A DNA stretch of 64,000 nt from Candidatus Poribacteria bacterium (GTDB lineage Bacteria; Poribacteria; WGA-4E; WGA-3G), in assembly GCA_026702755.1 (NCBI GenBank), contig JAPPBX010000017.1, forward strand, positions 13,743-77,742, in the 5' to 3' direction. The notes below the pieces were generated by a model, which was given only the letters and a program-made list of their open reading frames with translations, searched no databases and was not told the origin of the DNA. Positions 3 to 21,816 of this stretch are shown here, piece after piece. Positions within the stretch are counted from its first letter, which is position 1; every line of letters starts with the position of its first letter. Position numbers and translations under genes: made by a program.

Positions 3-1802
3 GACAGCCGCTTCACACAGAAATCGGGAATTTATACATTACAGTTGAGCGGAGGCACTCTGTTTGCCGGAACCTCTCTGGGAATCTACCGCTTCAAGAC
101 GGGAACTTGGGAACACCTACAGTTGCCAGTGGACAATACTGTGGTAGTGCGTTCTTTGGCGGTGTCTGAAGACACTATCTATGTCGCCGTAGAGGTAAAT
201 ATAATGGAAGGTGACGGAACGCCAGATGAAAATTACCATAATTTGTGTGACATCAGTAAAGATTCGTGGTGGGTATTCCGATCAACCGATGCAGGCGATT
301 CTTGGACAGATGTAACGCCTACAGATGCCCGAAATTTGATAATGAAAACGTTGCCGTCGATTAAACTGGTCGCATCTGGGAAAACTGTTTTACTGATAGG
401 TGGAGAGGAAGGCGTTGTGGCTCGCTCAACGGACTTTGGAAACACTTGGCGTTCCACAGAATCTTCCGGTATTACATCTATGCAGTTTAGTGTGGGTTCT
501 GCTGTCGCTTTAGACGAAAACACCTTTTATACTGGTGGCATCCCTGGAATCCATCAATCAAAGGATGGCGGTGAAACGTGGCACCGATTCAATACAAGGT
601 TTGAGTGCCGTGTGGATAATTTAATCAGTTTAGAGACGAGTCCAAATTCAAAAGCATCTAAGGTGCTGTACGCGACGGTTGTTGGCGGTGTGGTCAAATC
701 AACAGACGCAGGTAGTTCCTGGACTGCTGTTGACATCGAACGGGCAAGGTATACCCTTACGGTACCAAAGTTCAATGCGAAACTCAAAGATAGGGAAGAC
801 ACGCCGCTAATTGGACAGATTTCCGAAGTCAATGGTGTCCTATATGCAAAAGGGATTCGACGTAATTGTGAGACGGCCTACTATCGTTTAGATCCAGACA
901 AAAATTGCTTATTTCCTGTAGAGGGTTATATTTTTAGAGAGGGAAAGACACCGCCTTCGCGAGATTCAGGAAGGCTCATGTGGACCGTGTTCAAGGGAAT
1001 AACACTCCCCTTTGATTCTTACCGGCTACCGAAACAAGAGGGCCAAATTACCTTTACCAGCTCTACAGATCCGGACGCTGATTCTGAGGATTTATCAACG
1101 CAGATAATACGCGAGAATCCGAGATTTGGCGCAGAATGCTTTTTAAAACTGTTGGATCAAAAACAAGACGAGCATCAACTAACTTACACATTGATGTTGG
1201 AAGGCTTATACGGCAACTTCGCGGTGAGTGGAGAAACGTACTATATGGAGTACAACTATAAACTCTTCCGATGGAAACCGGGTGACACAAGATGGTCGGA
1301 TACCGGTGTAGAGGAAACTTGTGAACTCACGCGTGAAAATATGGGTCGAGGTTTTAAACTTGCTACATCGGGTGAAACAGTATACGTCGGTAAGCGGGAT
1401 GGACATCTCGTCCAATCGCTTGATGGTGGAGATAGTTGGAACGACATTACATCAAACCTACCGCTACCTGTTGCGCACTTCAATCAAATTGTCTTTGCCG
1501 ATTCGACGGTTCATATCGCAACTGACAAAGGCGTTTTCAATTCAATAGATGGTGTTGTGTGGAATGCAATCACCGATAAAGCGGGGAAAGACGTAATCAT
1601 TAAGTCGTTAGCAACAGCAGGGGATACTGTTTATGGCGCGAATGATGACGGCATCTATCACTTAGAAAAGGAAACAGGGACTTGGCAACAAATTGTGCCT
1701 GAAATTCCGGATACTATAACTTCTCTCGTTGTTGATAGAGATGCCTTTTACGTTGGCACCGAACATCGTGGCGTGCTCCGTTTTGAACGTTCTGAGTCGT
1801 AG
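3..1802 (+). CDS. BNR/Asp-box repeat (sortilin/Vps10-like beta-propeller) protein, C-terminal portion; the reading frame is open to the window edge, so the 5' end is missing
   Basis: Repeated SxDxGxTW Asp-box motifs (STDAGDSWTDV, STDFGNTWRS, SKDGGETWHRF, STDAGSSWTAV, SLDGGDSWNDI). It aligns along its whole length with the C-terminal 580 aa of ORF 5352..8447 (e.g. GNFAVSGETYYMEYNYKLFRWKPGD vs GNFAVSDETFYMEYNYKLFRWKPGD). There is no in-frame stop codon between nt 3 and the ATG at 45. Confidence 0.7.
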   Translation, partial: DSRFTQKSGIYTLQLSGGTLFAGTSLGIYRFKTGTWEHLQLPVDNTVVVRSLAVSEDTIYVAVEVNIMEGDGTPDENYHNLCDISKDSWWVFRSTDAGDSWTDVTPTDARNLIMKTLPSIKLVASGKTVLLIGGEEGVVARSTDFGNTWRSTESSGITSMQFSVGSAVALDENTFYTGGIPGIHQSKDGGETWHRFNTRFECRVDNLISLETSPNSKASKVLYATVVGGVVKSTDAGSSWTAVDIERARYTLTVPKFNAKLKDREDTPLIGQISEVNGVLYAKGIRRNCETAYYRLDPDKNCLFPVEGYIFREGKTPPSRDSGRLMWTVFKGITLPFDSYRLPKQEGQITFTSSTDPDADSEDLSTQIIRENPRFGAECFLKLLDQKQDEHQLTYTLMLEGLYGNFAVSGETYYMEYNYKLFRWKPGDTRWSDTGVEETCELTRENMGRGFKLATSGETVYVGKRDGHLVQSLDGGDSWNDITSNLPLPVAHFNQIVFADSTVHIATDKGVFNSIDGVVWNAITDKAGKDVIIKSLATAGDTVYGANDDGIYHLEKETGTWQQIVPEIPDTITSLVVDRDAFYVGTEHRGVLRFERSES

Positions 1803-1869: not shown

Positions 1870-3381
1870 ATGCTAACAACACTCATTCGCCGGGAACTCC
1901 TTGATAACCTGATGACGTTCCGATTTGCTGCAGCTGCCTTGATTATGCTGTTGCTTGTCGTCGCGAATACCTCGGTGCTCATCACGGATCACGAGCAACG
2001 CTTGGCAAGCCACAATGCTGCGGTCAAAATGCATCAGAGGCAGCTTCAGGCGGCGAAAACGTATTCCTCAGGGATAAGGAAATTAGTCGTCGACCGACCC
2101 CCGAACCCGTTAAGCATTTTCAATGTCGGGTTCGATAAGCAGCTCGGAAACGAGGTTCAGATATCCCATTCGTATGTTCCATCGTTGTGGGACACCGGGA
2201 TGCATGGGTCGGACAATCCGTTTATGGATATGTTCGCTTCGCTGGATATTGTTTTTATCTTTGAGGTGATTCTGAGTTTATTGGCACTGATTTTCGCCTA
2301 CGATACGCTCGCTGGAGAATATGAACGTGGCACATTACGTCTGGTCTTGACACATCCGGTCCGTCGCGGGCATATCCTGCTTGCCAAATATATCAGTGCG
2401 ATGCTTTGCTTACTTGTGCCGTTGCTAATGAGCCTGCTCCTTGCAGTCATCTTGCTGACGATGACCCCTTCCATTTCTCTGAACACCGGTGATTTTTTGC
2501 GGATCGGAGGGATTATTTTAACCACCGTTGTATACCTTTCCGTATTCTATCTCATCGGACTGTTGATTTCGGCGGCGACGCGTCGGACCAGAACTGCGTT
2601 GATGCTCTCCATGTTTGTGTGGGGATTTTTGGTTCTTGTCTATCCGAATATGATTCTTGCCGTGGTCCCGCAACCGGAGGCACCGCAAGCGCGCCGGGCA
2701 TCCGCTTTTAATCAAATCGAACAGATGTGGGAGGAATTTGACAGAGACCGGAAACGGTTCCTCGCCACCGACGCGCTCCCAGGGGAAGACTGGCATTTTA
2801 ACATTCTGGGCAGTGGCGGGTATAGTGAAGGTCTTTGGGGTGACCCTAGTCGCTTGTTGTATGCCTACAACAGCAGCATGTCGGCTGGCAGCCTTAACGA
2901 TGAAGCTGAACCTAAGATTCCGCACGCCCAGAATTATTTCGGTTTCCTCGGGACCCAGGTTATCGGGACAGCAGACCAAACATGGCTCATCCGAAAGCCC
3001 GCACTGGAAGGCATCTTCACTCAACCCGCAAACGTGGAGCGACTCTATCTGAAACTCTCGCCCGTGGGACTGTATGATGCCGCAACACAAGCCTGGGCTG
3101 GCACAGACCTGCGCGGTGTCAGAGATTTTCTTGACGCTGCGAGACGACACAGACAGCGCGTAATTGACTATCTCTATGATGAAGAGGTATTCAAGTCTCG
3201 ACAGTGGTTTTCTTCGGACAAAGGTGCCGCAGATTGGAGCAATCTACCGCAGTTCTCTTTTCAAAGGGTCGATGTGAACACAAATGCAAAGCGAGCCTTA
3301 CCGGATTTAAGCATACTACTCATGCTTAATGTCATTATTTTCATCGTGATATTTCTGATTTTCATCAAAAGTGAAGTGTAA
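1870..3381 (+). CDS. ABC-2-type permease-like membrane protein (family A) with a large C-terminal extracytoplasmic domain and a terminal TM helix
   Basis: N-terminal TM helix; ABC-2 hallmark E-x-E-x-GTL (YERGTLRLVL); five further hydrophobic segments; about 220 aa of hydrophilic domain; a final TM helix (ILLMLNVIIFIVIFLIFI). Paralog of 9452..10987 (shared NPLSIFNVG, SDNPF, WFSSD[KR]GAA). Confidence 0.6.
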   Translation: MLTTLIRRELLDNLMTFRFAAAALIMLLLVVANTSVLITDHEQRLASHNAAVKMHQRQLQAAKTYSSGIRKLVVDRPPNPLSIFNVGFDKQLGNEVQISHSYVPSLWDTGMHGSDNPFMDMFASLDIVFIFEVILSLLALIFAYDTLAGEYERGTLRLVLTHPVRRGHILLAKYISAMLCLLVPLLMSLLLAVILLTMTPSISLNTGDFLRIGGIILTTVVYLSVFYLIGLLISAATRRTRTALMLSMFVWGFLVLVYPNMILAVVPQPEAPQARRASAFNQIEQMWEEFDRDRKRFLATDALPGEDWHFNILGSGGYSEGLWGDPSRLLYAYNSSMSAGSLNDEAEPKIPHAQNYFGFLGTQVIGTADQTWLIRKPALEGIFTQPANVERLYLKLSPVGLYDAATQAWAGTDLRGVRDFLDAARRHRQRVIDYLYDEEVFKSRQWFSSDKGAADWSNLPQFSFQRVDVNTNAKRALPDLSILLMLNVIIFIVIFLIFIKSEV

Positions 3382-3553
3382 AATGGCTATCAGCGGTCAG
3401 GTCGCTGCGCTTTCAGCAATCAGTTAAGAAACCTATGTGACGGTTGCTCGTGTGCTCACTCCCACAAACTGCTGATTACCGACTGCACTTACTAATATAG
3501 CACAATCACTCTTTGCTGAAGGCTCATTGCTGACAGCCGACAACCATAAAAAA

Positions 3554-4978
3554 ATGTGGCATATTGCGAAACGCGAACTTTATGATAATCTCAATAGCCT
3601 CCGATTTGCCCTGGCAACGGTGTTGTTGCTCGGCTTGATGTTGACCAACGCGATTGTACATCTCCGAGAACATCCGAAACGCGTCCAGAACTCTCGCAAT
3701 TATGTCGTCGAATATCAGAATCGCTTAGCATTTCATGCTGGGGATAGTTTGTATAAACTCGCCGAGCAGGGACCCGGGGACCTCCATAAGCAGCCATCTG
3801 TCCTCCGTTTCTGTGCAGAAGGCGGTGAGGCGTTTCTACCAAATTATGCGATAGGTGGTGCCGACCGTTGGGGACACGGCGGCCAACCGCCCTTAGAAAG
3901 TTTCTGGATACTGAACTATCCATCGGCCACCCCTGACCTGCATAATGTTCGCACAAACGTCACCAAAGTGGATTGGGGTTTTATCATCGGTTACGTCTTA
4001 AGTCTCATCGCGCTCCTATTCACCTTCGATGCGATTTCCCACGAACGCGAACGAGGCACACTGCGATTGATGTTGGCGAACTCGATTCCGCGTCATACCG
4101 TCCTGATTGGTAAGTTTTTAGGAGCATTAATCAGTATAAACATTCCTTTCACGCTTGCCGTCTTGGTGAATCTCTTAATGATTTCTACGTCAAGCGATGT
4201 ACACCTTAGTGCGGAGGCGTGGGGGCGTTTAGGGCTCATTTTCTCTATTGCGCTTTTGTACATAAGTCTATTTCTGGCGTTGGGGCTGCTTGTGTCGGCA
4301 CGTGTACAACGGAGCGCGGTGAGTCTCGTGATACTCCTCTTGGCTTGGGTCACCTTTGTCGTTTTTATGCCCAGTACACTCGTTTCGATTGCAGGGCGTT
4401 CTGCCCCGTCAACGTCTACTCTCGGATTTTCTGAACGCAGTGCTCAACTTGAGGAGGAACTTCTGCGCGAATACTACACGCTCCAATATGGTTCAAATAA
4501 GCCTTTAACTCAAATCCAAATATTACAAGTGGCAGGCGAGTTCGTCACCAAAGACGCAGCGCAGCAGGAACGCCTGCATGAAGAACGCTTAAAACAGCAA
4601 ATTTCTCAGGTCCGTCGGGCGCGTGCGATCACCCAAATTTCACCCGTCACCATTTTCTATCACCTCCTTGAAGCCTTTGCTGGAACGGGGTTTGAGCGAC
4701 ATTTGCAATTTTTAGAGAACGTTAAATCCTATGCCCAACAATTTCGGGTTTTCATCGCTGACACCGATCAAACCGATCCGGAGAGTCTTCATATCTTTGG
4801 GGTTCGTGAAGGGATGTCGCAGAAGCCTGTCGCTTCAGAGGCGATTCCAAAATTTGAAGATACCTTGAGTCTCAATAAGGACTTCAACACAGCAGCAGTC
4901 GATCTGTTGTTGCTAACGTTGTTCGTTGTAGTTTTACTATCCGCGGCGTATCTCGCGTTTGTCCGTGTCGAGCTTTAA
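3554..4978 (+). CDS. ABC-2-type permease-like membrane protein (family B)
   Basis: ERGTLRLML motif, multiple TM segments and a C-terminal TM. Paralog of 11149..12603 (MWHIAKRELYDNL vs MIWHIAKKEIYHNL; DPESLHIFGVREGMSQKPV vs DPESLHIYPVREGLSQKPV). The ATG at 3554 is preferred over the upstream TTG at 3527 because the paralog starts at the equivalent Met. Confidence 0.6.
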   Translation: MWHIAKRELYDNLNSLRFALATVLLLGLMLTNAIVHLREHPKRVQNSRNYVVEYQNRLAFHAGDSLYKLAEQGPGDLHKQPSVLRFCAEGGEAFLPNYAIGGADRWGHGGQPPLESFWILNYPSATPDLHNVRTNVTKVDWGFIIGYVLSLIALLFTFDAISHERERGTLRLMLANSIPRHTVLIGKFLGALISINIPFTLAVLVNLLMISTSSDVHLSAEAWGRLGLIFSIALLYISLFLALGLLVSARVQRSAVSLVILLLAWVTFVVFMPSTLVSIAGRSAPSTSTLGFSERSAQLEEELLREYYTLQYGSNKPLTQIQILQVAGEFVTKDAAQQERLHEERLKQQISQVRRARAITQISPVTIFYHLLEAFAGTGFERHLQFLENVKSYAQQFRVFIADTDQTDPESLHIFGVREGMSQKPVASEAIPKFEDTLSLNKDFNTAAVDLLLLTLFVVVLLSAAYLAFVRVEL

Positions 4979-5351
4979 CGCAAGCAAATCTTTCTTGTCT
5001 ACATATTCTGAATTTTCTTTTTAAACCTTTTCGATGAAAACCCCCCTCTTTGTAATTACAGTAAAATATACAATCACTTGAACATTGCGGAAGCGAAGAT
5101 ACAATCACCTTGCAATTTCGGGAAATATGACAGTATGAAGTTGGATTTCACTATGTTCTTGAGGATCTATGATCCTCTGTTGGATTTAAGAGATATTTGG
5201 GGCACCCACATCTGTCTCTTCAGTTCCGTTCAACCCAACCTACAGAAGACCTTGAAAAATAAAGATTGCAGAATTACGAAACTTTTTTATTTAAAGTAGC
5301 ATCTTAAATGTTAATATGAATTGATGAACATACCCTTTTCAGAGGTGTCCG

Positions 5352-8300
5352 ATGAAAAACAACGATGCTCAACTCATCCAACGCGTGCTTGAAGGCGATG
5401 ATACTGCGTTCTCCGTGCTTGTGAGAAAATATCAGAAATCCGTTCACGCACTGGCGTGGCGGAAGATCGGGGATTTCCATATCGCCGAGGATATTACACA
5501 GGATACCTTCCTGCAAGCGTATCAAAAACTCTCAACACTGAGAAAACCGCAGCGTTTCGCGGGTTGGCTCTATGTGATAGCAGCGAACTACTGCAAAATG
5601 TGGCTGCGTCAGAAACGTTTATCAACCCAGTCGTTGGAAAACACAAGCAGCGCGCAATTAGAAAAAGCAACCTATTCTGGATATGTTATTGAGGAAAACG
5701 AGCGGACAACAGCAGAAGCACAGCGCGAGATCGTCAAAAAGTTGCTTGCGAAGTTACAAGAGAGCGAGCGTACAGTCATCACCCTTTACTACCTTGGGGG
5801 AATGAATTATGAACAGATAAGCGAGTTTCTGGGTATGTCGGTTAGCGCGATTAAGAGCCGACTCCACCGAGCAAGACAACGATTAAAGAAGGAGGAACCG
5901 ATGATTCGAGAGGCTTTAGGCAACTTCCAAATTACACCAAATCTATCAGAGAATATTATGCGGGAGATTTCGCGTATGAACCCAATTGCGCCATCTAGCA
6001 GTAAACCGTTGGTGCCGTGGGCAATCGGCGTTTCCACATTAGTCGTTGTCTTTTTGATGGTAGGCGTTGGCAGTCAATACCTGTCGCGTTTCCAGAAACC
6101 CTACAGTTTCGATGCGACTTCGGAGATGACAGTTGAACTCATTGAAGCACCTATCGTGCTGAGCCTTGAATCCAAACCTGATGTCCGGACGCAGCTCGGA
6201 AACGTCAATACGCCAAGTAAGAACAATGCCTCTCATCGACAGCCTAATAAGGAAAAGTCTGTGGTTCACGAAACCTTGAAAGATTTCCAACACTCAGACG
6301 ATCTCGTGGAGGACATCATGAAATGGACTCGGGTACGTGAACCGGGTATATTGGGCGAAGTAGGTACCCTGTCAGGGACTTCGGAAAATACGCTCTATAC
6401 CGTTATAGGCGACAGGAGTATCTATAAGCTGCCATCGGGTGAGGAGGCGTGGCAACTTGTCGATGACACCTTCCTATATCAAAACACCGGCGGTAATATA
6501 CCCATAGCAGAGCGGGATGGTACACTTTATATTATCTTATCCAATGAATTGTATGCTTCCACTGATGATGGCGAAACTTGGCACTTCGTCGGCACCTGCC
6601 CCCAAGGGTATGTTAGGGAATTGAGGGTTACAGAAGATGCGCTTTACCTTTGTCTCAGTGACGGTATCTTCCGATCCGATGACGCTGGAAATTCTTGGAA
6701 GGATATAAGCAATGGCTTAGATGATCGCTTGTCCGAACACTCAGGAATTCATTCGTTACAAATGAGTCAAGGCACGCTATTTGTGAAAACCGATCTCGGA
6801 CTCTATCGTCTTGAGGCGGACACTTGGCAACACTTACGATTACCAGTAGATGAAGCCGTGCATGTTGGTTCTTTAGCGATATATGAGGACGAAATTTATG
6901 TCATAGCATCAGTGAATATTTTGGATTTCTATGGGGCTCCGAAAGATATTTGGGAGCGATTGTGGAAAGGCGAGATGCGTTCGTGGTGGATTTTCCGATC
7001 AACCGATGGGGGTGACGCATGGAAAGACATAACACCCATGAACGCTTGGAATCTGACGGGCTTCCGTCCGGATATAACGTTGATTACGACACGGAATACA
7101 CTCTTGGCAATCGGGAATGATGACGGTATGGTAGCACGCTCGGTTGATAGTGGAGACACTTGGACATCTATAGCGTCTTCAGGGATTTCTCCCATACAGT
7201 TCAGTGTGCGATGCGCTGTAGCTTTAGATGGAAACACATTTTATACGGGTGGCAGCAGTGGGATTCACCGTTCAACTGATGGTGGTAAGACGTGGCACCG
7301 CTTTCATACCGGACTGGAAAGTCGTGTTGATAATTTAGTTAGTTTCGTGGCAGATCAGGCACCAGACAGGTCTGCAGCACTTTACGCCAGCGTGGGTAAA
7401 CATTTTGTCAAATCGAACGATGGCGGAACATCCTGGGAGGCTGTCAGCTTGGCAGTGAACCCCAGTGCCCGTTTATCCCAAAAGCAACAACCGGAAATTG
7501 TGCAGGTAGCAAAAACTAATGGGGTGCTCTATGCAAAAGGAATTCAAGAAATTTATGAGACTGCTATTTTTCAGTTGTCTTCCGATGGTAATACTCTCAT
7601 CCCCGTTACAGGAACACCCCCTTCTTTAAGTTCATCTGGACTGGTGCAAAAAGTACTGGCGGGCAAGCGTTTCACTTTCAGAGACGAAAGACGATCAGTG
7701 CCGGAACTTCGCGTTGGCTTTTCTGGTGTAGCTGATGCCTTATTGGATGATTTATCAAAGACCCCTGATTTTGGGGCAGACAGTTTCTTTGAAAGATTGG
7801 TAGAGAGGCAAATAGACCCTCGAGTGGTCTATGAGTTAATACGGGAAGGATTATGGGGTAACTTCGCAGTCAGCGATGAAACGTTCTACATGGAATACAA
7901 CTATAAACTCTTCCGATGGAAACCTGGTGACCCAGAATGGCACGACACCGGTTTGGAGGAGACCGGTGAACTCCGTCGCGAGACCTTGTGGAGAGGCTTT
8001 AAAATCGCTGCATCGGACGGAACCGTCTATGTCGGTAAGCGGGATGGACATCTCTTACAATCGCTTGATGGGGGAGACACTTGGAATGATGTCACACCAA
8101 ATCTGCCCTTCTCTATCGAGCATTTCAAAGAGATAGTCTTTGCAGATTCAACGGTCTGCGTCGCGACTGATAAAGGGGTTTTTTATTCAAAAGATGGCGT
8201 TGTCTGGAATGTCCTTGTCGATGAGACGGGAAAACCTGTTATCATCAAGTCGTTATCTACAATAGGGGATTCCGTTTACGGTGCCAACGATGAAGGCATC

Positions 8301-8447
8301 TATTATCTACAAGGTGAGACAGATACTTGGGAACAAATTGCCCCAGAAGTTTCAGGTGTCGTGACTTCTCTCGTTGTGGACGAAAATATGTTTTACGTCG
8401 GCACGGAACGACGAGGTGTCCTGCGTTTTGAACGTACCAGCAGATAA
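5352..8447 (+). CDS. ECF sigma-70 factor fused in-frame to a transmembrane helix and an extracytoplasmic BNR/Asp-box beta-propeller domain (one-polypeptide sigma/anti-sigma-like sensor)
   Basis: Sigma-70 region 2 (FSVLVRKYQKSVHALAWRKIGDFHIAEDITQDTFLQAY). Region 4 HTH (ERTVITLYYLGGMNYEQISEFLGMSVSAIKSRLHRARQRLKK). Then about 45 aa, then a TM helix (WAIGVSTLVVVFLMVGVGSQYL). Then about 750 aa carrying Asp-box motifs (STDDGETWHF, SDDAGNSWKDI, STDGGDAWKDI, SVDSGDTWTSI, STDGGKTWHRF, SNDGGTSWEAV, SLDGGDTWNDV). A GGGG/SD-like sequence and the ATG lie at 5340-5354. Confidence 0.75.
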   Translation: MKNNDAQLIQRVLEGDDTAFSVLVRKYQKSVHALAWRKIGDFHIAEDITQDTFLQAYQKLSTLRKPQRFAGWLYVIAANYCKMWLRQKRLSTQSLENTSSAQLEKATYSGYVIEENERTTAEAQREIVKKLLAKLQESERTVITLYYLGGMNYEQISEFLGMSVSAIKSRLHRARQRLKKEEPMIREALGNFQITPNLSENIMREISRMNPIAPSSSKPLVPWAIGVSTLVVVFLMVGVGSQYLSRFQKPYSFDATSEMTVELIEAPIVLSLESKPDVRTQLGNVNTPSKNNASHRQPNKEKSVVHETLKDFQHSDDLVEDIMKWTRVREPGILGEVGTLSGTSENTLYTVIGDRSIYKLPSGEEAWQLVDDTFLYQNTGGNIPIAERDGTLYIILSNELYASTDDGETWHFVGTCPQGYVRELRVTEDALYLCLSDGIFRSDDAGNSWKDISNGLDDRLSEHSGIHSLQMSQGTLFVKTDLGLYRLEADTWQHLRLPVDEAVHVGSLAIYEDEIYVIASVNILDFYGAPKDIWERLWKGEMRSWWIFRSTDGGDAWKDITPMNAWNLTGFRPDITLITTRNTLLAIGNDDGMVARSVDSGDTWTSIASSGISPIQFSVRCAVALDGNTFYTGGSSGIHRSTDGGKTWHRFHTGLESRVDNLVSFVADQAPDRSAALYASVGKHFVKSNDGGTSWEAVSLAVNPSARLSQKQQPEIVQVAKTNGVLYAKGIQEIYETAIFQLSSDGNTLIPVTGTPPSLSSSGLVQKVLAGKRFTFRDERRSVPELRVGFSGVADALLDDLSKTPDFGADSFFERLVERQIDPRVVYELIREGLWGNFAVSDETFYMEYNYKLFRWKPGDPEWHDTGLEETGELRRETLWRGFKIAASDGTVYVGKRDGHLLQSLDGGDTWNDVTPNLPFSIEHFKEIVFADSTVCVATDKGVFYSKDGVVWNVLVDETGKPVIIKSLSTIGDSVYGANDEGIYYLQGETDTWEQIAPEVSGVVTSLVVDENMFYVGTERRGVLRFERTSR

Positions 8448-8629: not shown

Positions 8630-9451
8630 ATGGAAAAACTATTTGATTACGCTGTGCTATTTAGTGCGTTGATGCTTATTGCAGCAGGCTACGCTGCGGC
8701 AGATATTGCTGATGGCCTTGCGGTTCACTTTACGTTCGATTCCGTCAAAGGCAAGCGAATTCTTGACGAGTCCGGCAACGGTCTGGATGCCGAAGTTATC
8801 AAAAACACTCAATTTGTCAAGGGCAAATACGGAAAAGCAATTCGTATCACTGGTGAAACTGAAGATTGCGTGAATATCCCGTCCTCGGATGCCTTAAAAA
8901 TCAGTGATGAAATTACGATGATGGCATGGGTGTATCACGAAGATTGGACGCGGAGTTCTTCCCAATGGTTTGATAAGGGGTGCTATTCTAAGCACACTGA
9001 ATCTTACGGTATGGTAGTCTGGGGTAAAAAGGATTTTCCGGAACTAGGAGCCCTTGAAACGGACTCAGTGGTCTCGATGCTTGTTGGGGGTGCAGACTTG
9101 CAGCAAAGCATTACTACACCGAACGAAATGAAGCATAGGACATGGCATCATGTCGTCGGAACCTACGGTGATAAAGCTTTAAAAATCTATCTTGATGGAA
9201 AAATAATTGCTAATTTACCTTCACAGGTTGATGACTTCTTCGGCACCAACGAGGAGGATTTGCGGGTTGGCTGTGCGAAAAATAAACCGCAGTACGCATT
9301 TGAAGGCGGTTCCATTGATGAAGTTGCGATATGGAGTCGTGTGCTCAGTGAAGATGAAGTCAGAACCGCGATGCAGGGCCCCTTGCTCGCAATCTCGCCG
9401 AAGGGTAAGGTCACTACGACGTGGGGCAATATGAAGCGGAAGGCGTTTTAG
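8630..9451 (+). CDS. Secreted LamG_3 / concanavalin A-like lectin-glucanase superfamily protein (paralog 1)
   Basis: Signal peptide MEKLFDYAVLFSALMLIAAGYAAA. LamG_3-type motifs (GLAVHFTFD; ITMMAWVY; C-terminal IDEVAIWSRVLSEDEV). GAGG RBS. The stop codon abuts the next ATG (TAGATG at 9449-9454). The C-terminal tail is GKVTTTWGNMKRKAF. Confidence 0.7.
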   Translation: MEKLFDYAVLFSALMLIAAGYAAADIADGLAVHFTFDSVKGKRILDESGNGLDAEVIKNTQFVKGKYGKAIRITGETEDCVNIPSSDALKISDEITMMAWVYHEDWTRSSSQWFDKGCYSKHTESYGMVVWGKKDFPELGALETDSVVSMLVGGADLQQSITTPNEMKHRTWHHVVGTYGDKALKIYLDGKIIANLPSQVDDFFGTNEEDLRVGCAKNKPQYAFEGGSIDEVAIWSRVLSEDEVRTAMQGPLLAISPKGKVTTTWGNMKRKAF

Positions 9452-10987
9452 ATGTCTGAATCGCGGAGGACTTGGTATAAATTTATGACAACACTTTGGC
9501 TAATTATCCAGCGAGAATTCGTCTCAAATGTTCTGACCTCCCGATTCATGATCGGTTTTGTGGTCTGTCTGATGTCGACAGCTGCTGCCGTTTTCGTTCA
9601 GGTTGCAGATTACGAAAAGCGATTGGGAACATATCACGTTGCTGTTCAGGAACATCACGAAGAGAAGCGAATGTGGGACCTCTACAGCCAAATTAATCCA
9701 AAGGCATATAGGAAACCGAATCCACTCAGCATCTTTAACGTCGGCATGGAAAAATCCGGTGCGGATATGGTGAGTATTAAATTGGCAACACCTATTTGGG
9801 AGAAAGAAGCACAGAAACAGGGATCAGACAACCCATTCCTTTCAATTTTCCTTTCTATTGATGTCATTTTCGTCTTCAAAATCGTGCTCAGTGCGTTGGC
9901 AATTTTGTTTGCTTACAACACAATTTCAGGGGAGAGGGAGGATGGTACCCTAAAACTGGTGTTATCCAATCCGGTTTCGAGGGACGCGCTCGTACTTGGG
10001 AAATACCTTGGTGGCGTGTTATCTCTGTTTCCGATTGTGGTGATGAGTTTCACTGTTGGCATCGTTATTGCTTACACCTCTCCTGCTACTGATTTTGATG
10101 CTGATGATCTGCTACGCCTCGTCATGGTGCTCGTTGTTTCGCTGTTGTATGTGTCAATCTGTTATCTTTTAGGGATGCTCTTATCTGTGTGGACAAAGGA
10201 AGCAGCGACTACGCTGATCCTTTCGATGTTTATTTGGGGAATTCTGACAATTGTCCATTCAAATATAGCAACGTTTGCAGTCGCGAAGTTCCCACCGCGT
10301 AAACCTCAACCCGAAAAAGAAGTGCTGCAACAGATTGATCAGATGTGGGAAAATTTCAAGGAAGAACGAAATGCCCAACTGAAAAAGTGGGGATATAAGT
10401 ATCCAACAAGCGCGCTTTCTTGGATAGCCGATGGTCCTCTGACACTGTCGATTGAAATGCGGTCGCCAGGGGAACTCGGGTTCCAAGAACTTTATGAAAT
10501 CAAACCTATTGACATCTTAGATGTTTCCAAATTTCAGGAAGTATTAGGCTACCAAGAACCGCTCCGTATTGATTATGTAAACAAAGCTGAGGAAATTTTC
10601 AAACGGAGGGAGGACATTCGCGAAAGGAACAGTCAACTCGCCAGAGATATTTCCCGGGTATCTTTCGCGGACACATATCGTTTTGCTGTCGGCGCAATTA
10701 TAGGCACGGACAGGAAGAGTTATAATGATTTTATCGGACAGGTGAGAAATTATAAGCGTCAAGTTGTGGACTACCTCGCCGGTAAGAATGCATTTTCCGC
10801 GCGAGCGTGGTTTTCGAGTGATAGGGGAGCTGCAGAACTCACAGATCTACCTGTTTTTCAGCACCGATATAACTCCCTTTCTGAGGGTCTCTCGCGTGCG
10901 TCGGGTGATATTTTTATTTTATTAGCGTGGAATGTTATTCTGTTCATGGGCGCATACGTATCGTTCCTCCGGTATGATATGAGTTGA
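9452..10987 (+). CDS. ABC-2-type permease-like membrane protein (family A, second copy)
   Basis: Paralog of 1870..3381. EREDGTLKLVL motif, TM segments, a large C-terminal hydrophilic domain and a terminal TM helix. The start is translationally coupled to the upstream LamG gene. An alternative start at Met12 (MTTLWLIIQREF) is possible. Confidence 0.6.
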   Translation: MSESRRTWYKFMTTLWLIIQREFVSNVLTSRFMIGFVVCLMSTAAAVFVQVADYEKRLGTYHVAVQEHHEEKRMWDLYSQINPKAYRKPNPLSIFNVGMEKSGADMVSIKLATPIWEKEAQKQGSDNPFLSIFLSIDVIFVFKIVLSALAILFAYNTISGEREDGTLKLVLSNPVSRDALVLGKYLGGVLSLFPIVVMSFTVGIVIAYTSPATDFDADDLLRLVMVLVVSLLYVSICYLLGMLLSVWTKEAATTLILSMFIWGILTIVHSNIATFAVAKFPPRKPQPEKEVLQQIDQMWENFKEERNAQLKKWGYKYPTSALSWIADGPLTLSIEMRSPGELGFQELYEIKPIDILDVSKFQEVLGYQEPLRIDYVNKAEEIFKRREDIRERNSQLARDISRVSFADTYRFAVGAIIGTDRKSYNDFIGQVRNYKRQVVDYLAGKNAFSARAWFSSDRGAAELTDLPVFQHRYNSLSEGLSRASGDIFILLAWNVILFMGAYVSFLRYDMS

Positions 10988-11148
10988 GGAGGAGGGTTAT
11001 CAGTTTTTTAGTTTTCAGTTTTCAGTTAAGATGCGCTTTGTAACAATCTTCCCACCATAGAATATTTTAGGGCGAGGTGAATTGTTACCAGAAACCTCTT
11101 GTGACTGATAACTGTTAACTGACCGCTGACAACTGACAACCATTAAAA

Positions 11149-12603
11149 ATGATTTGGCATATTGCGAAAAAAGAGATATATCATAACCTCATGACGCTGC
11201 GGTTCGTTTTGATGGTAATCCTGCTGCCTGCCCTAATGCTGGCGAACGCGCTCATATACGGCTTCGGCGATAGTGGATATAGAGAGGAAGTCGATGCGTA
11301 TAACCTCGCGATGGAAAGAAGATTGTCTCGCGTTAAGGACGATGCCGACGAGAGTTTAGGGAAACTCGCTATGCGGGGTCCCGGTGAGATTTACAAGCGT
11401 CTGAGTCGATTCAAATTTTGTGCTGATGGGGCTGCTGAACTCATCCCGAACTCTATCCCCATTGCAGCGCATGGAGGCGGTCGTGGAGGTAGTGGTGGTG
11501 TAGTAGAAGACTACAGTTGGCGAGAAATGTGGACTCTTGAATATCTACCGTCAAATCATGGAGGCGGCGCAACCACACTTATCAAAATCGACTGGGTGTT
11601 CATCGGTATCTTCATGGGTTTCTTTGTTATACTATTCACTTTCGATGCCATTGCCGGGGAACGGACAAAGGGAACACTGAGCCTCATGATGTCTAACCAG
11701 ATTTCCCGAGGACAGATGCTATTCGCGAAATATCTGGGCACGTTTTTTACACTCATGGTGCCGCTCACAATAGGTATCCTCATGAACCTACTGGTCATCT
11801 ATCTTTCAGGGAGTATTTCGTTTAGTTCGAGTGATTGGCTTAGAATTTTAGGGATGGTCGGACTTTTTACGCTGCATATCTCTATCTTTATTTTTCTCGG
11901 ACTGTTCTTCTCAAGTCGGGTATCAAACGCCATCACCAGTTTAGTGTGGTTGCTATTAACTTGGGTATGCTTGGCGTTTATCTTTCCGAGCTTACTCGGA
12001 CTTTTCGTTGGTACCCTCGACCCGATTCCGTCAATAGAGATCGTCTCCTCGCGAAAACGTGCACAATTAGCAAACATCGAGGATGAATTTCGTCCAATGG
12101 AGTTGTTGGAGGTAACCAAACTAAGCGAGGCACCTTCACCTGATAATCCATCAGCCACACGCCGATGGGCAACGTACTTCACGAGAAGGTACGAAACGAA
12201 AACCCGTATAGCCGACGAACACGTAGATCAGCAATTGAGGCAGGTGAAACTCGCCAGGGAACTCACCCAAATCTCTCCGATAGTTTGCTTCCAATATGCA
12301 ATGGAAGGGCTTGCAAACACTGGGATTGTTAGTTATATGGATTTTGTCAAGCAGGTTCGCCGTTACAGACAAACATTTATAGATTTCATCAAAACGGAGG
12401 ATCAAGGCGATCCGGAGAGTTTACATATCTATCCTGTGAGAGAAGGGTTGTCTCAGAAACCGGTGGACCCAAACGCTATACCAAGGTTTAAAGAGCGCAT
12501 TTCATATCAAAGTGTGATTTTTCCTGTCGGACTGTTAATCCTTTTTAATATCTTGTTCTTTACTGCAGCGCAGTTGTCCTTTCTGAAATGTGATCTGAAA
12601 TAA
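11149..12603 (+). CDS. ABC-2-type permease-like membrane protein (family B, second copy)
   Basis: Paralog of 3554..4978. ERTKGTLSLMM motif. Gly-rich loop GGGRGGSGG. It is preceded by the CTGACAACTGACAACC-ATTAAAA-ATG leader motif. Confidence 0.6.
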   Translation: MIWHIAKKEIYHNLMTLRFVLMVILLPALMLANALIYGFGDSGYREEVDAYNLAMERRLSRVKDDADESLGKLAMRGPGEIYKRLSRFKFCADGAAELIPNSIPIAAHGGGRGGSGGVVEDYSWREMWTLEYLPSNHGGGATTLIKIDWVFIGIFMGFFVILFTFDAIAGERTKGTLSLMMSNQISRGQMLFAKYLGTFFTLMVPLTIGILMNLLVIYLSGSISFSSSDWLRILGMVGLFTLHISIFIFLGLFFSSRVSNAITSLVWLLLTWVCLAFIFPSLLGLFVGTLDPIPSIEIVSSRKRAQLANIEDEFRPMELLEVTKLSEAPSPDNPSATRRWATYFTRRYETKTRIADEHVDQQLRQVKLARELTQISPIVCFQYAMEGLANTGIVSYMDFVKQVRRYRQTFIDFIKTEDQGDPESLHIYPVREGLSQKPVDPNAIPRFKERISYQSVIFPVGLLILFNILFFTAAQLSFLKCDLK

Positions 12604-12610
12604 GAACTTT

Positions 12611-12639
12611 TTGACTCTTTTCGTTAAATCTGCTATCAT
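12611..12639 (+). promoter_or_regulatory. Candidate sigma-70 promoter for LamG paralog 2 (TTGACT-17-TATCAT)
   Basis: ttgactcttttcgttaaatctgctatcat lies about 90 nt upstream of the ATG at 12732. Confidence 0.35.
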
Positions 12640-12731
12640 TTTTCCAATTGATGTGGTGGTACGCGGTTAAGCGTATTTTCACTGGTTCCGAGACCTTTTT
12701 ATTTTCTCTAACCTGTCAAAAGGAGTTTATC

Positions 12732-13526
12732 ATGAAAAGGGTTCTTGTGATTTTCGCGGTGATTGGGATACTCATCAGTTTTGCACCGTGTAGTAAAGCC
12801 AATCCGCCGGATGGATTAGTGCTACATCTGAGTTTCGATAAAAATAGCATTCAAGGCGATACCGCAAAAGATCTGTCTGAGGAAGGCAATGATGGGATCA
12901 TTAACGGTAACGCAACGATGGTCGCGGGAAAGCATGGCGACGCATTGGAGTTTGATGGCAAGGATGACTTTGTTGAAGTACCACTGGAAGATTCGATTAC
13001 CTTTTCCACTGGCGATTCACTAACAGTCCAAGTGTGGGTAAAAACAGACGATGAGCCACCAAAGAACGATGGGATTGTCGGAAACTATCGTCCGGGTACT
13101 GATGCGGTTTGGATACTCTCTGTCAGCGGCGATAACCCAGCGACTCGTGGCAAAATGGCTTTTAGTGTCCGGGACAAGGGACGTGCCAATAGTGCTGGGA
13201 TAACTTCTCCGGACTTCCTGAACGATGACAAATGGCATGTCCTTGCTGGTGTCCGAGACCAGAAAGCAAAAAAGATCAGATTCTACATAGACGGTAAGTT
13301 GATTGATGAAGTTGATGACAATACAAAGGACATCAACAGCGGGCAGTCAATTTGGGTAGGAGAGCATCTGAACCGGTATTACAAGGGACTCATTGATGAA
13401 GTGAAAGTGTGGAACCGTCCATTGACCGCCGCGGAACTTGAGCAATCAGGCCAACAACCGTCTGCTGTTGGTGCCTCCGGAAAGTTGACGACTGTATGGA
13501 GTGCGCTCAAAACAGCACACCGGTAG
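12732..13526 (+). CDS. Secreted LamG_3 / concanavalin A-like protein (paralog 2)
   Basis: AAGGAG RBS then ATG. Signal peptide MKRVLVIFAVIGILISFAPCSKA. LamG_3 motifs (GLVLHLSFD, LTVQVWV, C-terminal LIDEVKVWNRPLTAAELEQ). C-terminal tail GKLTTVWSALKTAHR. Confidence 0.7.
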   Translation: MKRVLVIFAVIGILISFAPCSKANPPDGLVLHLSFDKNSIQGDTAKDLSEEGNDGIINGNATMVAGKHGDALEFDGKDDFVEVPLEDSITFSTGDSLTVQVWVKTDDEPPKNDGIVGNYRPGTDAVWILSVSGDNPATRGKMAFSVRDKGRANSAGITSPDFLNDDKWHVLAGVRDQKAKKIRFYIDGKLIDEVDDNTKDINSGQSIWVGEHLNRYYKGLIDEVKVWNRPLTAAELEQSGQQPSAVGASGKLTTVWSALKTAHR

Positions 13527-13687: not shown

Positions 13688-14743
13688 TTAACTTAGCGAA
13701 AAAACGCTCACCCCACCCGACTCGTCACCAACAGCAATATACTGGTCGTTCGGTGACCAAACGAGGCTTGTGACCCCCGCTGCCAGGGCGGCTTCATGAA
13801 CCGCCAGAGAACTCATTCTGCCTCGCAATTGCCAGACGTAGATCAGACCGTCAGCACCACCTGAGGCGAGCAGTTTTCCGCGATGTTGAAAACGCACAAC
13901 GCTGAGAAAATCCTGATGCCTGGAAAGCGTGATCGGGTTGGTCCCAGCCGGGCCGCGACCGGAACAATCCCACACCGTAACTTCCTGACTGCCTCCGGTA
14001 GCCAAGTATCGACTCGTGGCATCCCACGAGAGTTCTCGCACTTTCGTCGGATAGCCAGTCATTTGCAAGTCTTCACCGGTAGACATAATCCAGAAATGTA
14101 CGGTCGAATCTTGATCTCCGGTGGCGATGTGTTTGCCGTCAGGGCTCCACGCAATTACCAGTGATGAGCCTTTCCATTCCAATCGGCGGACGGCTTCCGA
14201 CTGTTGCGGGTCCCACAGCGTGACACCGCCGTAGGCAATCGAGGCAAGTTGTCTTACACGCGGTCTCCACTGGAGATCAGAAATCGTGCTCTGATGATCG
14301 GAATATTCGCGAACAAGATCGCCGACAGCGTTCCAGAGTTTCAGCTTACGCCCCGCGGCAGAGGCGAGTATCGGTTTCTTGCCGCCACTCCAAGATAGAT
14401 GCTCAACCCATGCAGCGCCCCCGTCAAGCGAATGGGTCGCTTCGCCACTCGCCATATCCCACAACCGAATTTTCCCATCTTGTCCTGCGCTTGCAAGCAC
14501 CTTGCTGTCTGGACGCCATGCGATTGACATTGTACCGAATTCATGCCCTTCAAAGGCATGGATAACCGTTCGACGACCACCTTCAAAAATTGTAACCGGA
14601 CCGAGAACCGACGCGGCAGCAATGTATCTCCCATCAGGGGACCACGCCAGATCAATGACGTGGTCGCTGATGGTTACGGTCCAATTTTCGCGCAGTTGAG
14701 AGGGCTGGAAAAAGCGGTTGCTCAGGTTGTTCAAGCGAGACAT
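13688..14743 (-). CDS. WD40-repeat beta-propeller protein
   Basis: Multiple WD-like blades (AWSPDGRYIAAASVLGPVTIFE; IAWRPDSKVLASAGQDGKIRLWD; AWSPDGKHIATGDQDSTVHFW; VWSPNDQYIAVGDESGGVSVFS). Its start overlaps the 3' end of the upstream COG0523 gene by 13 nt. Confidence 0.8.
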   Translation of the reverse strand: MSRLNNLSNRFFQPSQLRENWTVTISDHVIDLAWSPDGRYIAAASVLGPVTIFEGGRRTVIHAFEGHEFGTMSIAWRPDSKVLASAGQDGKIRLWDMASGEATHSLDGGAAWVEHLSWSGGKKPILASAAGRKLKLWNAVGDLVREYSDHQSTISDLQWRPRVRQLASIAYGGVTLWDPQQSEAVRRLEWKGSSLVIAWSPDGKHIATGDQDSTVHFWIMSTGEDLQMTGYPTKVRELSWDATSRYLATGGSQEVTVWDCSGRGPAGTNPITLSRHQDFLSVVRFQHRGKLLASGGADGLIYVWQLRGRMSSLAVHEAALAAGVTSLVWSPNDQYIAVGDESGGVSVFSLS

Positions 14744-16083
14744 GCTTCAAATCCTTCAGTCAATTCAGACCGGTCGAGGTTGCGCCCGATGAAGATAAGG
14801 CTATTGTAGCGCGGTTCACCACCCCACGGGCGGTCGGGGCGACCGTCGAAGAGCATATGAACCCCTTGGAAGACGAATCGTTCTGGCTGCCCCTTGATGC
14901 TCAGAATACCTTTCATGCGGAAGATGTCGGGACCTTTTGTCCGAAGCAGGTTGCCAATCCAATCGTTCAGCCGGTCAGGGTCGAGGTCGCCGGGGGTTGT
15001 GATGCCGACCGATGTGACTTCGTCATCATGTTCGTGGTCCGGCTTAAATTCGCGTTCAACAACTGGCTTGACAAGGGTACCGCTGCCAAAGAGTTGTGCT
15101 TGAAATTCGTCGGGGTGATGCTCGGTAAACAGCGCGTAAGCACCGGGGCGGCCGATCTGCACGTCAAAGCGTAATTCGTCCGCCGTGAGATTCAATGCAA
15201 TGAGGTGTCCACCCGGTTGAAGGGTGCCACCCGCCGAAAGTTCATGCTCATCATCGGAGAAAACCATAACGACTGGCTCAACAGCGGACTCCAAAGCTTC
15301 ATCGGTTGACGCACTTACGGGCACCAACGCGACTTTCATCGCCGGGTCAGGACCTTCTTGGAGAACCAGTTCATGCGTGCCTGCCGAAAGGTCATAAACA
15401 CCAGCCCATTCAAACGGATACTCCGGTTCCATAAACTGTGGGTCAATCTCCATCGCCCGGTCCAGATCGAATCCACCGACATTGAGAATCTTGTCCATTT
15501 CAACCACGGCGTCTTTCGTTCGATAAATCTTCGCTGCAGCGTTCATGCTGCGAATTCTGGCTTCCAGTTGCTCTAACTCTCCCTCGGTCACAAGGTCAAT
15601 CTTGTTCAACAAAATGACATCGGCAAAGGCAATCTGTTCACGCGCCTCGTCGCTGTCATCGATGTGCTGCCAGATGTGTTTGGCATCAACCAGTGTCGTG
15701 ACGGAATCCAGTTGCAGTTTCTCCTGCATTTCGGTGTCCATAAAGAACGTCTGAGCAACTGGCCCGGGGTCCGCAAGTCCTGTGGTTTCGACCATGATGT
15801 AGTCAAACTTATCGCGACGCTTCATCAGATTCCCCAAAATACGGATGAGATCACCGCGCACCGTGCAGCAAATGCAACCATTGTTCATCTCGAAAATCTC
15901 TTCTTCGGCACCGATGACCAAATCATTATCGACACCGATCTCGCCAAACTCGTTTTCGATGACGGCGATACGTTTGCCATGGTTTTCGGTGAGAATGCGG
16001 TTGAGAAGCGTGGTTTTACCAGATCCCAAAAAGCCCGTCAACACGGTGACAGGAACTTGATTGTTTAGCATGGCTGTGTTCAT
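14731..16083 (-). CDS. COG0523-family (CobW/ZigA/YciC-like) metallochaperone GTPase
   Basis: Walker A VLTGFLGSGKTTLL. Metal-binding GCICCTVRGDL (CxCC) motif. ETTGLADPGPV switch region. C-terminal CobW_C-like region. AAGGAGAG RBS. Confidence 0.85.
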   Translation of the reverse strand: MNTAMLNNQVPVTVLTGFLGSGKTTLLNRILTENHGKRIAVIENEFGEIGVDNDLVIGAEEEIFEMNNGCICCTVRGDLIRILGNLMKRRDKFDYIMVETTGLADPGPVAQTFFMDTEMQEKLQLDSVTTLVDAKHIWQHIDDSDEAREQIAFADVILLNKIDLVTEGELEQLEARIRSMNAAAKIYRTKDAVVEMDKILNVGGFDLDRAMEIDPQFMEPEYPFEWAGVYDLSAGTHELVLQEGPDPAMKVALVPVSASTDEALESAVEPVVMVFSDDEHELSAGGTLQPGGHLIALNLTADELRFDVQIGRPGAYALFTEHHPDEFQAQLFGSGTLVKPVVEREFKPDHEHDDEVTSVGITTPGDLDPDRLNDWIGNLLRTKGPDIFRMKGILSIKGQPERFVFQGVHMLFDGRPDRPWGGEPRYNSLIFIGRNLDRSELTEGFEACLA

Positions 16084-16102
16084 CTTTCTCTCCTTGTAGA
16101 AT

Positions 16103-16363
16103 TTAGTCAGCGGTCAAGCTAACGATGTCCGTCTGATCCACCTCCGCCAGCGGTTTGTGAATCTTGTATTGCCGGGGCTTTCCCGGCGTCTCCATGATTG
16201 CAATGACCGTTTCAATAGGCGGGCAGCCCTCTTCGGTGCATTGCAACTGAGTAATCATCACAGAAATATCTTCTGATAGGTCAAAGACTTCGGAGACCCA
16301 CGATTTGACTTGGACGAGTTGCTGTGGGTCACTCTCTTTTTGCGAATTAAAAAAATTCAGCAC
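16103..16363 (-). CDS. Small hypothetical protein (86 aa) with a CTEEGC motif, first gene of the COG0523 operon
   Basis: The ORF sits 19 nt upstream of the COG0523 gene on the same strand. I recognise no family. Confidence 0.35.
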   Translation of the reverse strand: MLNFFNSQKESDPQQLVQVKSWVSEVFDLSEDISVMITQLQCTEEGCPPIETVIAIMETPGKPRQYKIHKPLAEVDQTDIVSLTAD

Positions 16364-21812: not shown

Positions 21813-21816
21813 AAGG

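Follow-up and report, generated by a model that had tools for sequence, protein, structure and literature searches.

A predicted single-chain, membrane-anchored ECF sigma factor carrying a tandem Asp-box propeller in Candidatus Poribacteria

In this study, we analysed a stretch of 64,000 nucleotides (nt) from the genome of a sponge-associated Candidatus Poribacteria bacterium (contig JAPPBX010000017.1, assembly GCA_026702755.1; hereafter the window), and in particular a gene at positions 5352-8447 whose product joins an extracytoplasmic function (ECF) sigma factor, a transmembrane (TM) helix and a large Asp-box beta-propeller. An earlier note on this DNA (the original prediction) had read these parts as one polypeptide, which is borne out by the open frame and by the domain matches. 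The parts of the gene, in window positions and amino acid (aa) residues, are:

5352..8447, + strand: coding sequence of the sigma-TM-tandem-propeller protein, a single uninterrupted frame of 1031 codons (1031 aa), stop included in the coordinates
5418..5618, + strand: sigma region 2, residues 23-89, Pfam PF04542 (Sigma70_r2), 52 bits
5727..5891, + strand: sigma region 4, residues 126-180, PF08281 (Sigma70_r4_2, residues 126-178; 58 bits) and PF04545
5907..5981, + strand: cytoplasmic linker helix, motif copy 1, residues 186-210, REALGNFQITPNLSENIMREISRMN, its columns nearly invariant in 108 sequences of the conserved head described below
6018..6083, + strand: TM helix, residues 223-244, WAIGVSTLVVVFLMVGVGSQYL, the only hydrophobic stretch (Kyte-Doolittle mean 2.27 over 19 aa)
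6084..6197, + strand: extracytoplasmic juxtamembrane segment, residues 245-282, SRFQKPYSFDATSEMTVELIEAPIVL..KPDVRTQ, a candidate stub or processing region that is kept whichever sensor follows
6258..6344, + strand: linker helix, motif copy 2, residues 303-331, VVHETLKDFQHSDDLVEDIMKWTRVREPG, which aligns with TM-less homologues and is predicted to lie on the outer side of the membrane
6354..8435, + strand: tandem Asp-box beta-propeller, residues 335-1028, given by a confident AlphaFold2 (AF2) model and by Foldseek fold matches

The first ~190 residues form a complete ECF sigma factor. The Pfam family Sigma70_ECF spans residues 6-181, the ECF superfamily model of NCBIfam (TIGR02937, sigma70-ECF) is matched with 100 bits (cutoff 42.9) and, as is characteristic of ECF (group 4) members of the sigma-70 family, regions 2 and 4 are present while regions 1 and 3 give no match in Pfam. 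The closest solved sigma factors in a PDB sequence search were AlgU-like proteins, SigW and RpoE, which align with the sigma part from end to end; the equivalog-level NCBIfam sigma models all fall under their cutoffs (RpoE, 111 of 236 bits; SigW, 108 of 209 bits). Region 4 is followed at a distance of ~35 aa by the TM helix, so the linker that the original prediction had placed between sigma factor and membrane is present, albeit shorter than the ~45 aa assigned to it; within it, the full-length AF2 model predicts helices at residues 182-190 and 198-208. The TM residues W223, S228 and G238 are invariant or near-invariant across the head family (alignment of 108 sequences). Between sigma factor and TM helix, no match to an anti-sigma domain (FecR-N, ZAS/zf-HC2 (zinc finger), RskA or class I anti-sigma domain) was obtained from Pfam (E<=10) or the PDB, and the TM module as a whole has neither a Pfam match at E<=10 nor a PDB sequence match. 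Sigma factor, TM helix and extracytoplasmic domain nevertheless lie in one open reading frame (ORF), which is the arrangement that distinguishes hybrids of the IutY type.

The C-terminal domain was originally described as an Asp-box propeller of ~750 aa; the Asp-box fold is confirmed, but the domain measures ~695 aa, is a tandem (double) propeller and starts only ~90 residues past the TM helix. Seven Asp-boxes (S-x-D-x-G-x-x-W) occupy conserved columns at residues 403, 442, 550, 597, 641, 688 and 904, and two Pfam families are matched above cutoff, namely PF15902 (Sortilin-Vps10; 53 bits, cutoff 33) and PF14870 (PSII_BNR; 36.5 bits, cutoff 27). The full-length AF2 model has an overall pLDDT (predicted local distance difference test) of 71.9 and a pTM (predicted template modelling score) of 0.62, residues 335-1028 being confident. 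The top Foldseek matches in the PDB are xyloglucanases of glycoside hydrolase family 74 (GH74; 2cn3, 6p2o and 5fkt, E ~1e-20), with alignments that run across both propellers, together with the tandem-propeller sensor domains of Bacteroides hybrid two-component systems; identity to these fold matches is just 10-15%. GH74 enzymes are built of two tandem propellers, each seven-bladed. A single large, sortilin-like propeller was considered and rejected, as the fold matches are tandem propellers. At the sequence level, a PDB search with the propeller returned designed 'Cake' propellers, a BNR hydrolase and Ycf48 but no GH74 protein, and the NCBIfam glycosylhydrolase model F510_1955 (not specific for GH74) was matched below its cutoff (109 against 175 bits). 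The model thus places the domain in the tandem-propeller fold, whereas its sequence does not place it in GH74, and because identity is low and the glycosylhydrolase model falls short, with no sign of enzymatic function, the propeller is taken here to be a binding module, perhaps for glycans, rather than an enzyme.

NCBI lists a protein identical to that under study, assigned to the sigma-70 family, from a Candidatus Poribacteria metagenome-assembled genome (MAG), and each of the 120 best homologues, at 57-88% identity, has sigma and propeller Pfam families on one chain. When one genome per bacterial species was scanned, 181 relatives came to light, from which 76 loci were kept; all of these are from Poribacteria, save one labelled 'uncultured bacterium', and many lie on complete chromosomes. 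In the fetched Poribacteria loci (mostly species-representative genomes), 129 sigma/TM junctions were read in frame. The window's own junction (around nt 5890-5960), where the original prediction had allowed for a hidden stop codon or frameshift, contains neither, and the in-frame fusion recurs across assemblies. A large share of the family's database entries are short (75-545 aa), frameshift-broken or truncated, even on Mb-scale contigs, either because long-read MAGs contain indel errors or because the paralogs frequently become pseudogenes.

Two further copies of the fusion precede the gene on the same contig, whose sequence beyond the window edge was available as locus L001 (window nt 1 being L001 nt 4650):

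3..1802, + strand: 3' part of a TM-less paralog; the complete gene, L001 3644-6451, encodes a 935-aa sigma-propeller fusion

The part of this paralog inside the window is 54% identical over 597 aa to residues 457-1029 of the protein under study, and a third, likewise TM-less copy of 913 aa lies upstream at L001 790-3531. The sigma-propeller fusion is therefore present three times in tandem on the contig and its membrane-anchored form once. The expectation that the paralog at the window edge repeats the whole architecture is accordingly not supported, since the upstream sequence supplies a sigma domain but lacks a TM helix. By prediction, the 913- and 935-aa copies stay wholly in the cytoplasm as sigma factors that bear a propeller extension of ~720 aa. 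This form prevails among the 120 best homologues, of which ~107 (~910 aa) are without a TM helix and ~12 (~1030 aa), including the window protein, carry a TM insert of ~120 residues. In TM-less members, sigma region 4 is followed by the motif V.ETLG.FQ.SDDLMEDIMNW.Q.NEPG and then by the propeller.

Searches with the TM insert alone, and then with residues 1-313, defined a conserved unit of ~300 aa, termed here the head, which consists of the sigma factor, the linker helix (MIREALxNFQITPNLTENIMREISRLKP), the TM helix and the juxtamembrane segment (RFQKPYSLDAxSEMTVELIDAPIVxNL..KPDxRNQ). The whole head occurs in at least 130 clusters at 50% identity, in proteins with total lengths of 400-1377 aa, and 2432 clusters (90% identity) match it at E<=1e-30, every named one being from Poribacteria. 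Sigma regions 2 and 4 were found in all 53 head-family members scanned, and a WD40 propeller as the C-terminal domain in 27 of them. The head is joined to a BNR-type propeller in 73 proteins of at least 880 aa from the loci (a count that includes chimeras of the window type, for which see below); the majority share just 45-53% identity with the window protein, and their genes often stand in tandem arrays of up to four. The sigma-TM-propeller architecture is a common design in Poribacteria, and on sequence grounds the window protein belongs to a large, Poribacteria-restricted family in which a common head is combined with varied sensors (BNR tandem propellers, WD40 and others).

The junction between sigma factor and TM module additionally contains what resembles a translation start:

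5889..5903, + strand: in-frame AAGGAGG (5889-5895), 5-nt spacer AACCG and ATG of Met184 (5901-5903), reading K-E-E-P-M184

The ATG is present in 129 of 129 TM-head genes. The codons that make up the Shine-Dalgarno (SD) element are strongly biased, AAG being used 95 times and AAA 3 times (35% AAG in the lysine background) and GAG 114 times against 5 for GAA (43% GAG in the background), while the next codon is GAA in 117 of 117 genes (57% in the background); the flanking codons (-5, -1 and +1) vary freely. Within the 300-codon head, SD-like hexamers occur almost solely at the position of 5889-5895, and the regular starts of family genes also carry SDs of the GGAG/GAGG type. Of 38 TM-less genes, 18 keep the ATG and 14 keep a 5-mer SD. 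Furthermore, in three distinct loci sigma-less TM-sensor genes begin exactly at the family SD and ATG, with stop codons ~15 codons upstream (L024 3439-5838, 799 aa, WD40; L017 9408, 782 aa, WD40; L038 10221, 384 aa); a gene at L016 13009 has the same sequence as that of L024. Such genes would effectively be orphan anti-sigma-like sensors. The codon usage indicates that the internal SD and ATG are held by selection at synonymous sites and, because they are so held, a second initiation at Met184 probably yields an 848-aa sigma-less TM-sensor isoform, with the predicted N-terminal peptide MIREALGNFQITPNLSENIMR. An alternative that we regard as unlikely is that the AAGGAGG-N5-ATG element serves as a translational pause assisting co-translational TM targeting, or reflects a codon-level constraint, with only the full-length protein being made. 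SD-like pause sites have been proposed to help the targeting of membrane proteins, and the element lies ~40 codons upstream of the TM helix; pausing, however, does not need the ATG that all 129 genes retain, both ATG and SD decay in the TM-less relatives, and the sigma-less genes of three loci, two of them complete ORFs of 782-799 aa, start at this very element.

Comparison of the gene with its relatives at the DNA level divides it into two parts of different descent:

5256..6252, + strand: recombination tract comprising the promoter region and the 5' 900 nt (sigma factor and TM module), derived from a sigma-TM-WD40-type gene
6252..6258, + strand: recombination breakpoint at residue ~301, between QPNKE and KSVVHETL; homology to the WD40 gene stops at 6252 and homology to the TM-less gene P0012 starts at 6258

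Positions 5256-6252 are 90.4% identical (blastn) to L003 3385-4382, the upstream region and 5' part of a 974-aa sigma-TM-WD40 gene, and positions 6258-8433 are 87.7% identical to P0012 (L002 10547-12722). The proteins agree, in that the identity of the sigma part is 81-95% with TM-head proteins and drops to 50-56% with every TM-less member, while the propeller shares 84% identity with that of P0012, which is as close to it as its own orthologues are (78-84%). In another genome, P0012 sits in the equivalent syntenic slot (NTP_transf_3, sigma-propeller, ABC2, ABC2, P0012, ABC2, ABC2). L003, a 5.4-Mb chromosome, holds an 88% identical orthologue of the window gene, and the sigma-TM-WD40 gene lies in the preceding cassette; its product and the window protein hardly differ over their first ~300 residues. 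These sequence comparisons show the window gene to be a recombinant, in which a TM-less sigma-propeller gene, at its syntenic slot, exchanged its own head for the head and promoter of a sigma-TM-WD40-type gene. The breakpoint is common to all orthologues and thus points to a single event, and the graft explains why the protein has two copies of the linker motif, one cytoplasmic (residues 186-210) and one outside the membrane (residues 303-331) that stems from the TM-less parent. No direct repeats flank the inserted module at the DNA level.

A midpoint-rooted neighbour-joining tree built on the final 700 residues puts the chimeras within the TM-less clade, and the other clade (clade B) consists of deep and diverse sigma-TM-BNR proteins. 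This tree is without an outgroup; comparison of the motifs, together with the decay of SD and ATG in TM-less genes, suggests that the TM-less form arose by an in-frame loss between ..NLTENIM and WIQ.. (giving ..DLMEDIM-N-WIQ..). The propeller of P0012 itself (gene L002 10001-12733) falls among the TM-containing chimeras, which may be tree noise or may reflect a second head exchange (a swap back). Against the L003 orthologue, the ratio of nonsynonymous to synonymous substitution rates (dN/dS) is 0.11 for the sigma part, 0.13 for the TM module and 0.26 for the propeller, and in TM-less paralogs the propeller gives 0.20-0.22; with values as low as these, the recombinant is kept by purifying selection, in at least seven or eight species, and is not decaying. 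At least seven other genomes carry it, one orthologue (L023) being cut to 601 aa.

The surroundings of the gene comprise a candidate promoter and two gene groups with ABC-2 permeases:

5278..5306, + strand: ECF-type promoter-like element GAAACTT-N17-TCTTA, with -35 GAAAC and the -10 variant GCATCTTA against GCGTCAC in the family
1870..4978 (1870-3381 and 3527-4978), + strand: ABC-2 permease pair of 503 and 483 aa after the TM-less paralog, ABC2_membrane_2 and DUF3526
8630..13526, + strand: downstream cassette of a secreted Laminin_G_3 protein (signal peptide), an ABC-2 pair (9452-10987 and 11149-12603) and a second Laminin_G_3 protein

The ~100 nt upstream of the gene are conserved with both the L003 chimera and the L003 sigma-TM-WD40 gene, the TM-head promoter having arrived with the graft. 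The family motif TG[ACT][AG]AC-N16-19-[CT]GTCA[CT] has 84 matches in 1.09 Mb of loci, and ~80 of these precede a sigma-fusion start by 35-75 nt, whereas none precedes an ABC-2 or LamG gene. The narrower consensus TG[AC][AG]AC-N16-19-CGTCA[CT], with the -35 AAC and -10 CGT typical of ECF promoters, stands before almost every sigma-fusion gene. TM heads use ..TGAAAC/TGCAAC..GCGTCAC and TM-less genes TGCAACC..TGTCAC; the window copy keeps GAAAC but has CATC for CGTC, a variant common to L003, L004, L008 and L026. Autoregulation is well supported by these motif positions for the family and uncertain for the window copy. A scan of the window for further promoter copies returned the gene's own site and one chance-level match, with no match to the strict family motif, and thus no regulon can be defined beyond the operon. 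Sigma-70 promoters and terminators scanned at background level, and the entire window gave no match to an Rfam family. In the TM-less promoter variant (L002 9938-9967; TGCAACC..CTATAAT..TGTCAC), a perfect sigma-70 -10 hexamer (TATAAT) sits within the spacer, a hint that two promoters may be in use.

Pairs of ABC-2 proteins of ~500 aa follow nearly every TM-less or chimeric gene (66 of the fetched loci), often together with a signal-peptide Laminin_G_3 protein, so that the association of permease pairs with each copy, already pointed out in the original prediction, is real and conserved. Gene gaps within the cassette are short or overlapping, no ABC ATPase is nearby, and the downstream LamG/ABC-2 cassette is, to judge by this layout, probably co-transcribed with the sigma fusion as one operon. 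The window encodes four Laminin_G_3 (concanavalin-like lectin) paralogs of ~260-290 aa, two in the sigma/ABC-2 cassette (8630-9451, with a clear signal peptide, and 12648-13526) and two 20 kb away, flanking an AAA ATPase gene (33165-33953 and 36120-36896). On the opposite strand, the block 13688-26385 encodes a 351-aa stand-alone WD40 protein, a CobW/COG0523-type GTPase, ZnuA, MerC, a TonB-dependent receptor with CarboxypepD_reg and a 1078-aa protein with a Por_Secre_tail/FlgD_ig C-terminus, and looks like a metal (zinc) homeostasis region.

Taken as a whole, we consider it reasonably probable that the product is an ECF sigma factor joined in one chain to a membrane anchor and a GH74-like propeller sensor and freed by regulated proteolysis, and that a probable second isoform accompanies it. 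The RpoE/SigW-like sigma domain would reside in the cytoplasm, tied to the TM helix by the linker helix of ~35 residues and inactive while tethered, and the propeller would act as a sensor outside the membrane, its signal most likely being a glycan or a partner protein. The signal would trigger site-1 cleavage in the variable extracytoplasmic linker, upon which a site-2 protease would cut within the TM helix and release the sigma domain to act on its own ECF-type promoter and the downstream LamG/ABC-2 cassette. The Met184 isoform, produced from the same mRNA, could serve as a partner, a decoy or a trans-acting anti-sigma-like modulator. Release by proteolysis is suggested by analogy, as the sigma part is nearest to RpoE, AlgU and SigW, the TM helix has conserved small residues (S228 and G238) and the juxtamembrane stub is conserved across unrelated sensors. 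For AlgU, SigW and RpoE alike, release comes about when the anti-sigma factor undergoes regulated intramembrane proteolysis. Of the two mechanisms named in the original prediction, proteolytic release and action while tethered, both appear reasonable, and release has an experimental precedent in IutY (PMC5411451).

Several observations weigh against this proposal. No protease site and no site-1 or site-2 protease was identified, the window itself being without a gene for either protease; a class I anti-sigma domain would not fit into the short cytoplasmic linker, for which Pfam and the PDB gave no known family; and no ligand was identified for the propeller. AF2 gave no confident model of the linker, the TM helix or the juxtamembrane segment, residues 190-334 staying below a pLDDT of 50 in the full-length run, and in a run on residues 1-333 alone (108-sequence alignment; pLDDT 48.7, pTM 0.28) docking of the linker on sigma2/sigma4 was unreadable. 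The -10 element of the window copy departs from the consensus, and internal initiation at Met184 is read from sequence conservation. Moreover, TM-less relatives have a propeller with 84% identity to that of the window protein and with a predicted cytoplasmic location, and near-identical propellers predicted on opposite sides of the membrane are hard to square with a simple sensor of external ligands. A bolder and rather doubtful interpretation would take up this last point: Poribacteria might toggle one propeller sensor between cytoplasm and periplasm by head swaps, the TM-less sigma factors being sequestered at the ATPase-less ABC-2 pair, in the manner of Mlc at PtsG or MalT at MalK, and the TM genes giving two products, of which the internally started, sigma-free sensor would regulate the sigma-fused one. 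If so, many of the WD40/BNR 'eukaryote-like repeat proteins' of sponge symbionts would be input domains of a large one-component sigma network and not host-manipulation factors.

Of the remaining explanations, action of the sigma factor while anchored, by recruitment of RNA polymerase to the membrane in the way of ToxR or CadC and with allosteric or oligomerisation-dependent modulation by the propeller, fares best but is still unlikely. The sigma domain of IutY has been reported to be tightly membrane-associated (PMC5411451). The ~35-aa linker carries no recognisable anti-sigma domain, so tethering alone may not inhibit, and a long, low-confidence sigma2-sigma4 linker (residues 88-125) would, along with the 35-aa tether, give the protein reach. 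Conversely, IutY, the only hybrid dissected experimentally, requires cleavage by RseP, and the conserved small TM residues and juxtamembrane stub fit a common processing machinery; release by intramembrane proteolysis is likewise the rule for AlgU, SigW and RpoE, the closest relatives. It is considerably less probable that the gene is an evolutionary accident, in which a cytoplasmic propeller was misplaced outside the cell and senses nothing, the sigma factor being silent or misregulated and heading for loss. The close identity to the TM-less P0012 propeller, the off-consensus -10 element and the truncated L023 orthologue would fit such a course of events, but the junction is common to orthologues in at least seven other genomes, the propeller dN/dS of 0.26 is near that of TM-less paralogs and far from neutral, and the deeper clade B shows that the sigma-TM-BNR-propeller arrangement is normal and widespread. 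Finally, a sequencing or assembly artefact that masks a stop or frameshift between separate sigma and anti-sigma genes, as the gene boundary-like junction (strong SD and ATG) and the many frameshift-broken database fragments might lead one to suspect, can be rejected given that the fusion stays in frame in more than 100 independent assemblies (45-95% identity), some of them complete long-read chromosomes.

Membrane-anchored single-chain ECF sigma factors are the sigma counterpart of one-component transmembrane regulators, and among them IutY alone has been dissected experimentally. With its varied sensors, versions with and without a TM helix, sigma-less versions and a datable head swap, the Poribacteria family comes near to a ready-made domain-swap series, through which the silencing of a tethered sigma factor, the function of the juxtamembrane segment and the role of the second isoform could be addressed. 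It also bears on the genomics of sponge symbionts, where WD40 proteins are counted as 'eukaryote-like' and 27 of 53 head-family members carry WD40. In the Poribacteria literature that was searched, WD40 repeats are catalogued as eukaryote-like proteins with no mention of sigma fusions, and the word 'sigma' is absent from the catalogue paper.

The original prediction had set the single chain against the usual control of ECF sigma factors by a separate membrane anti-sigma factor; the design has precedents, since sigma/anti-sigma hybrids and WD40-extended ECF sigma factors have already been described. IutY of Pseudomonas putida (ECF243) is a sigma/anti-sigma hybrid activated by Prc and then by RseP (PMC5411451; PMC8999054) and, like the window protein, unites in one polypeptide an N-terminal ECF sigma factor, a single TM helix and a C-terminal domain in the periplasm. 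However, IutY is a FecI/FecR-type protein of 374 aa with a recognisable anti-sigma domain and signalling through a TonB-dependent transducer, whereas the window protein has an RpoE/SigW-like sigma part, ~790 extracytoplasmic residues and no adjoining cell-surface-signalling receptor. The actinobacterial groups ECF48, ECF52 and ECF53 (SCO4117 of Streptomyces coelicolor) similarly combine an ECF sigma factor, TM segments and an extracytoplasmic region of carbohydrate-binding type, and proteolytic activation has been proposed for them (PMC8999054); they differ in their zinc-finger (ZAS) anti-sigma domain, proline-rich regions and phylum, and have no propeller and no reported internal start. In Planctomycetes, the ECF01-Gob/ECF57 sigma factors bear very long C-terminal beta-propeller (WD40) extensions and have expanded by duplication, with C-terminal extensions swapped among paralogs (PMC7671368; PMC8999054; PMC8567305; PMC5766207). 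The sigma-TM-WD40 genes of Poribacteria look like their counterparts, and are set beside them here by description; the sensor of the window protein is instead a BNR/GH74-like tandem propeller, and protein interaction, not release, has been proposed for ECF57.

Outside the sigma factors, the Bacteroides hybrid two-component sensors BT4663 (named in its PDB entry as a heparin/heparan-sulphate sensor), BT4673 and BT3049 also place a tandem propeller of ~700-750 aa outside the membrane as the input of a one-polypeptide regulator. Their output is a histidine kinase/response regulator, identity is 10-12% and their repeats are Reg_prop, not Asp-box. The GH74 xyloglucanases, such as Xgh74A of Clostridium thermocellum (2cn3), do share tandem propellers with Asp-boxes, but at only 13-15% identity. 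In the RsgI/SigI systems of C. thermocellum, a sigma factor is controlled by a single-pass membrane protein that has a carbohydrate-binding or GH-like module outside the cell and a conserved juxtamembrane processing site; there, the anti-sigma factor is a protein distinct from the sigma factor, SigI does not belong to the ECF type and the host is a member of the Firmicutes. Set against these systems, the window protein is new within a known kind, through its BNR tandem-propeller sensor on a conserved head without a recognisable anti-sigma domain, its selected internal start, its TM-less sister clade tied to ABC-2 cassettes and its mapped head swap.

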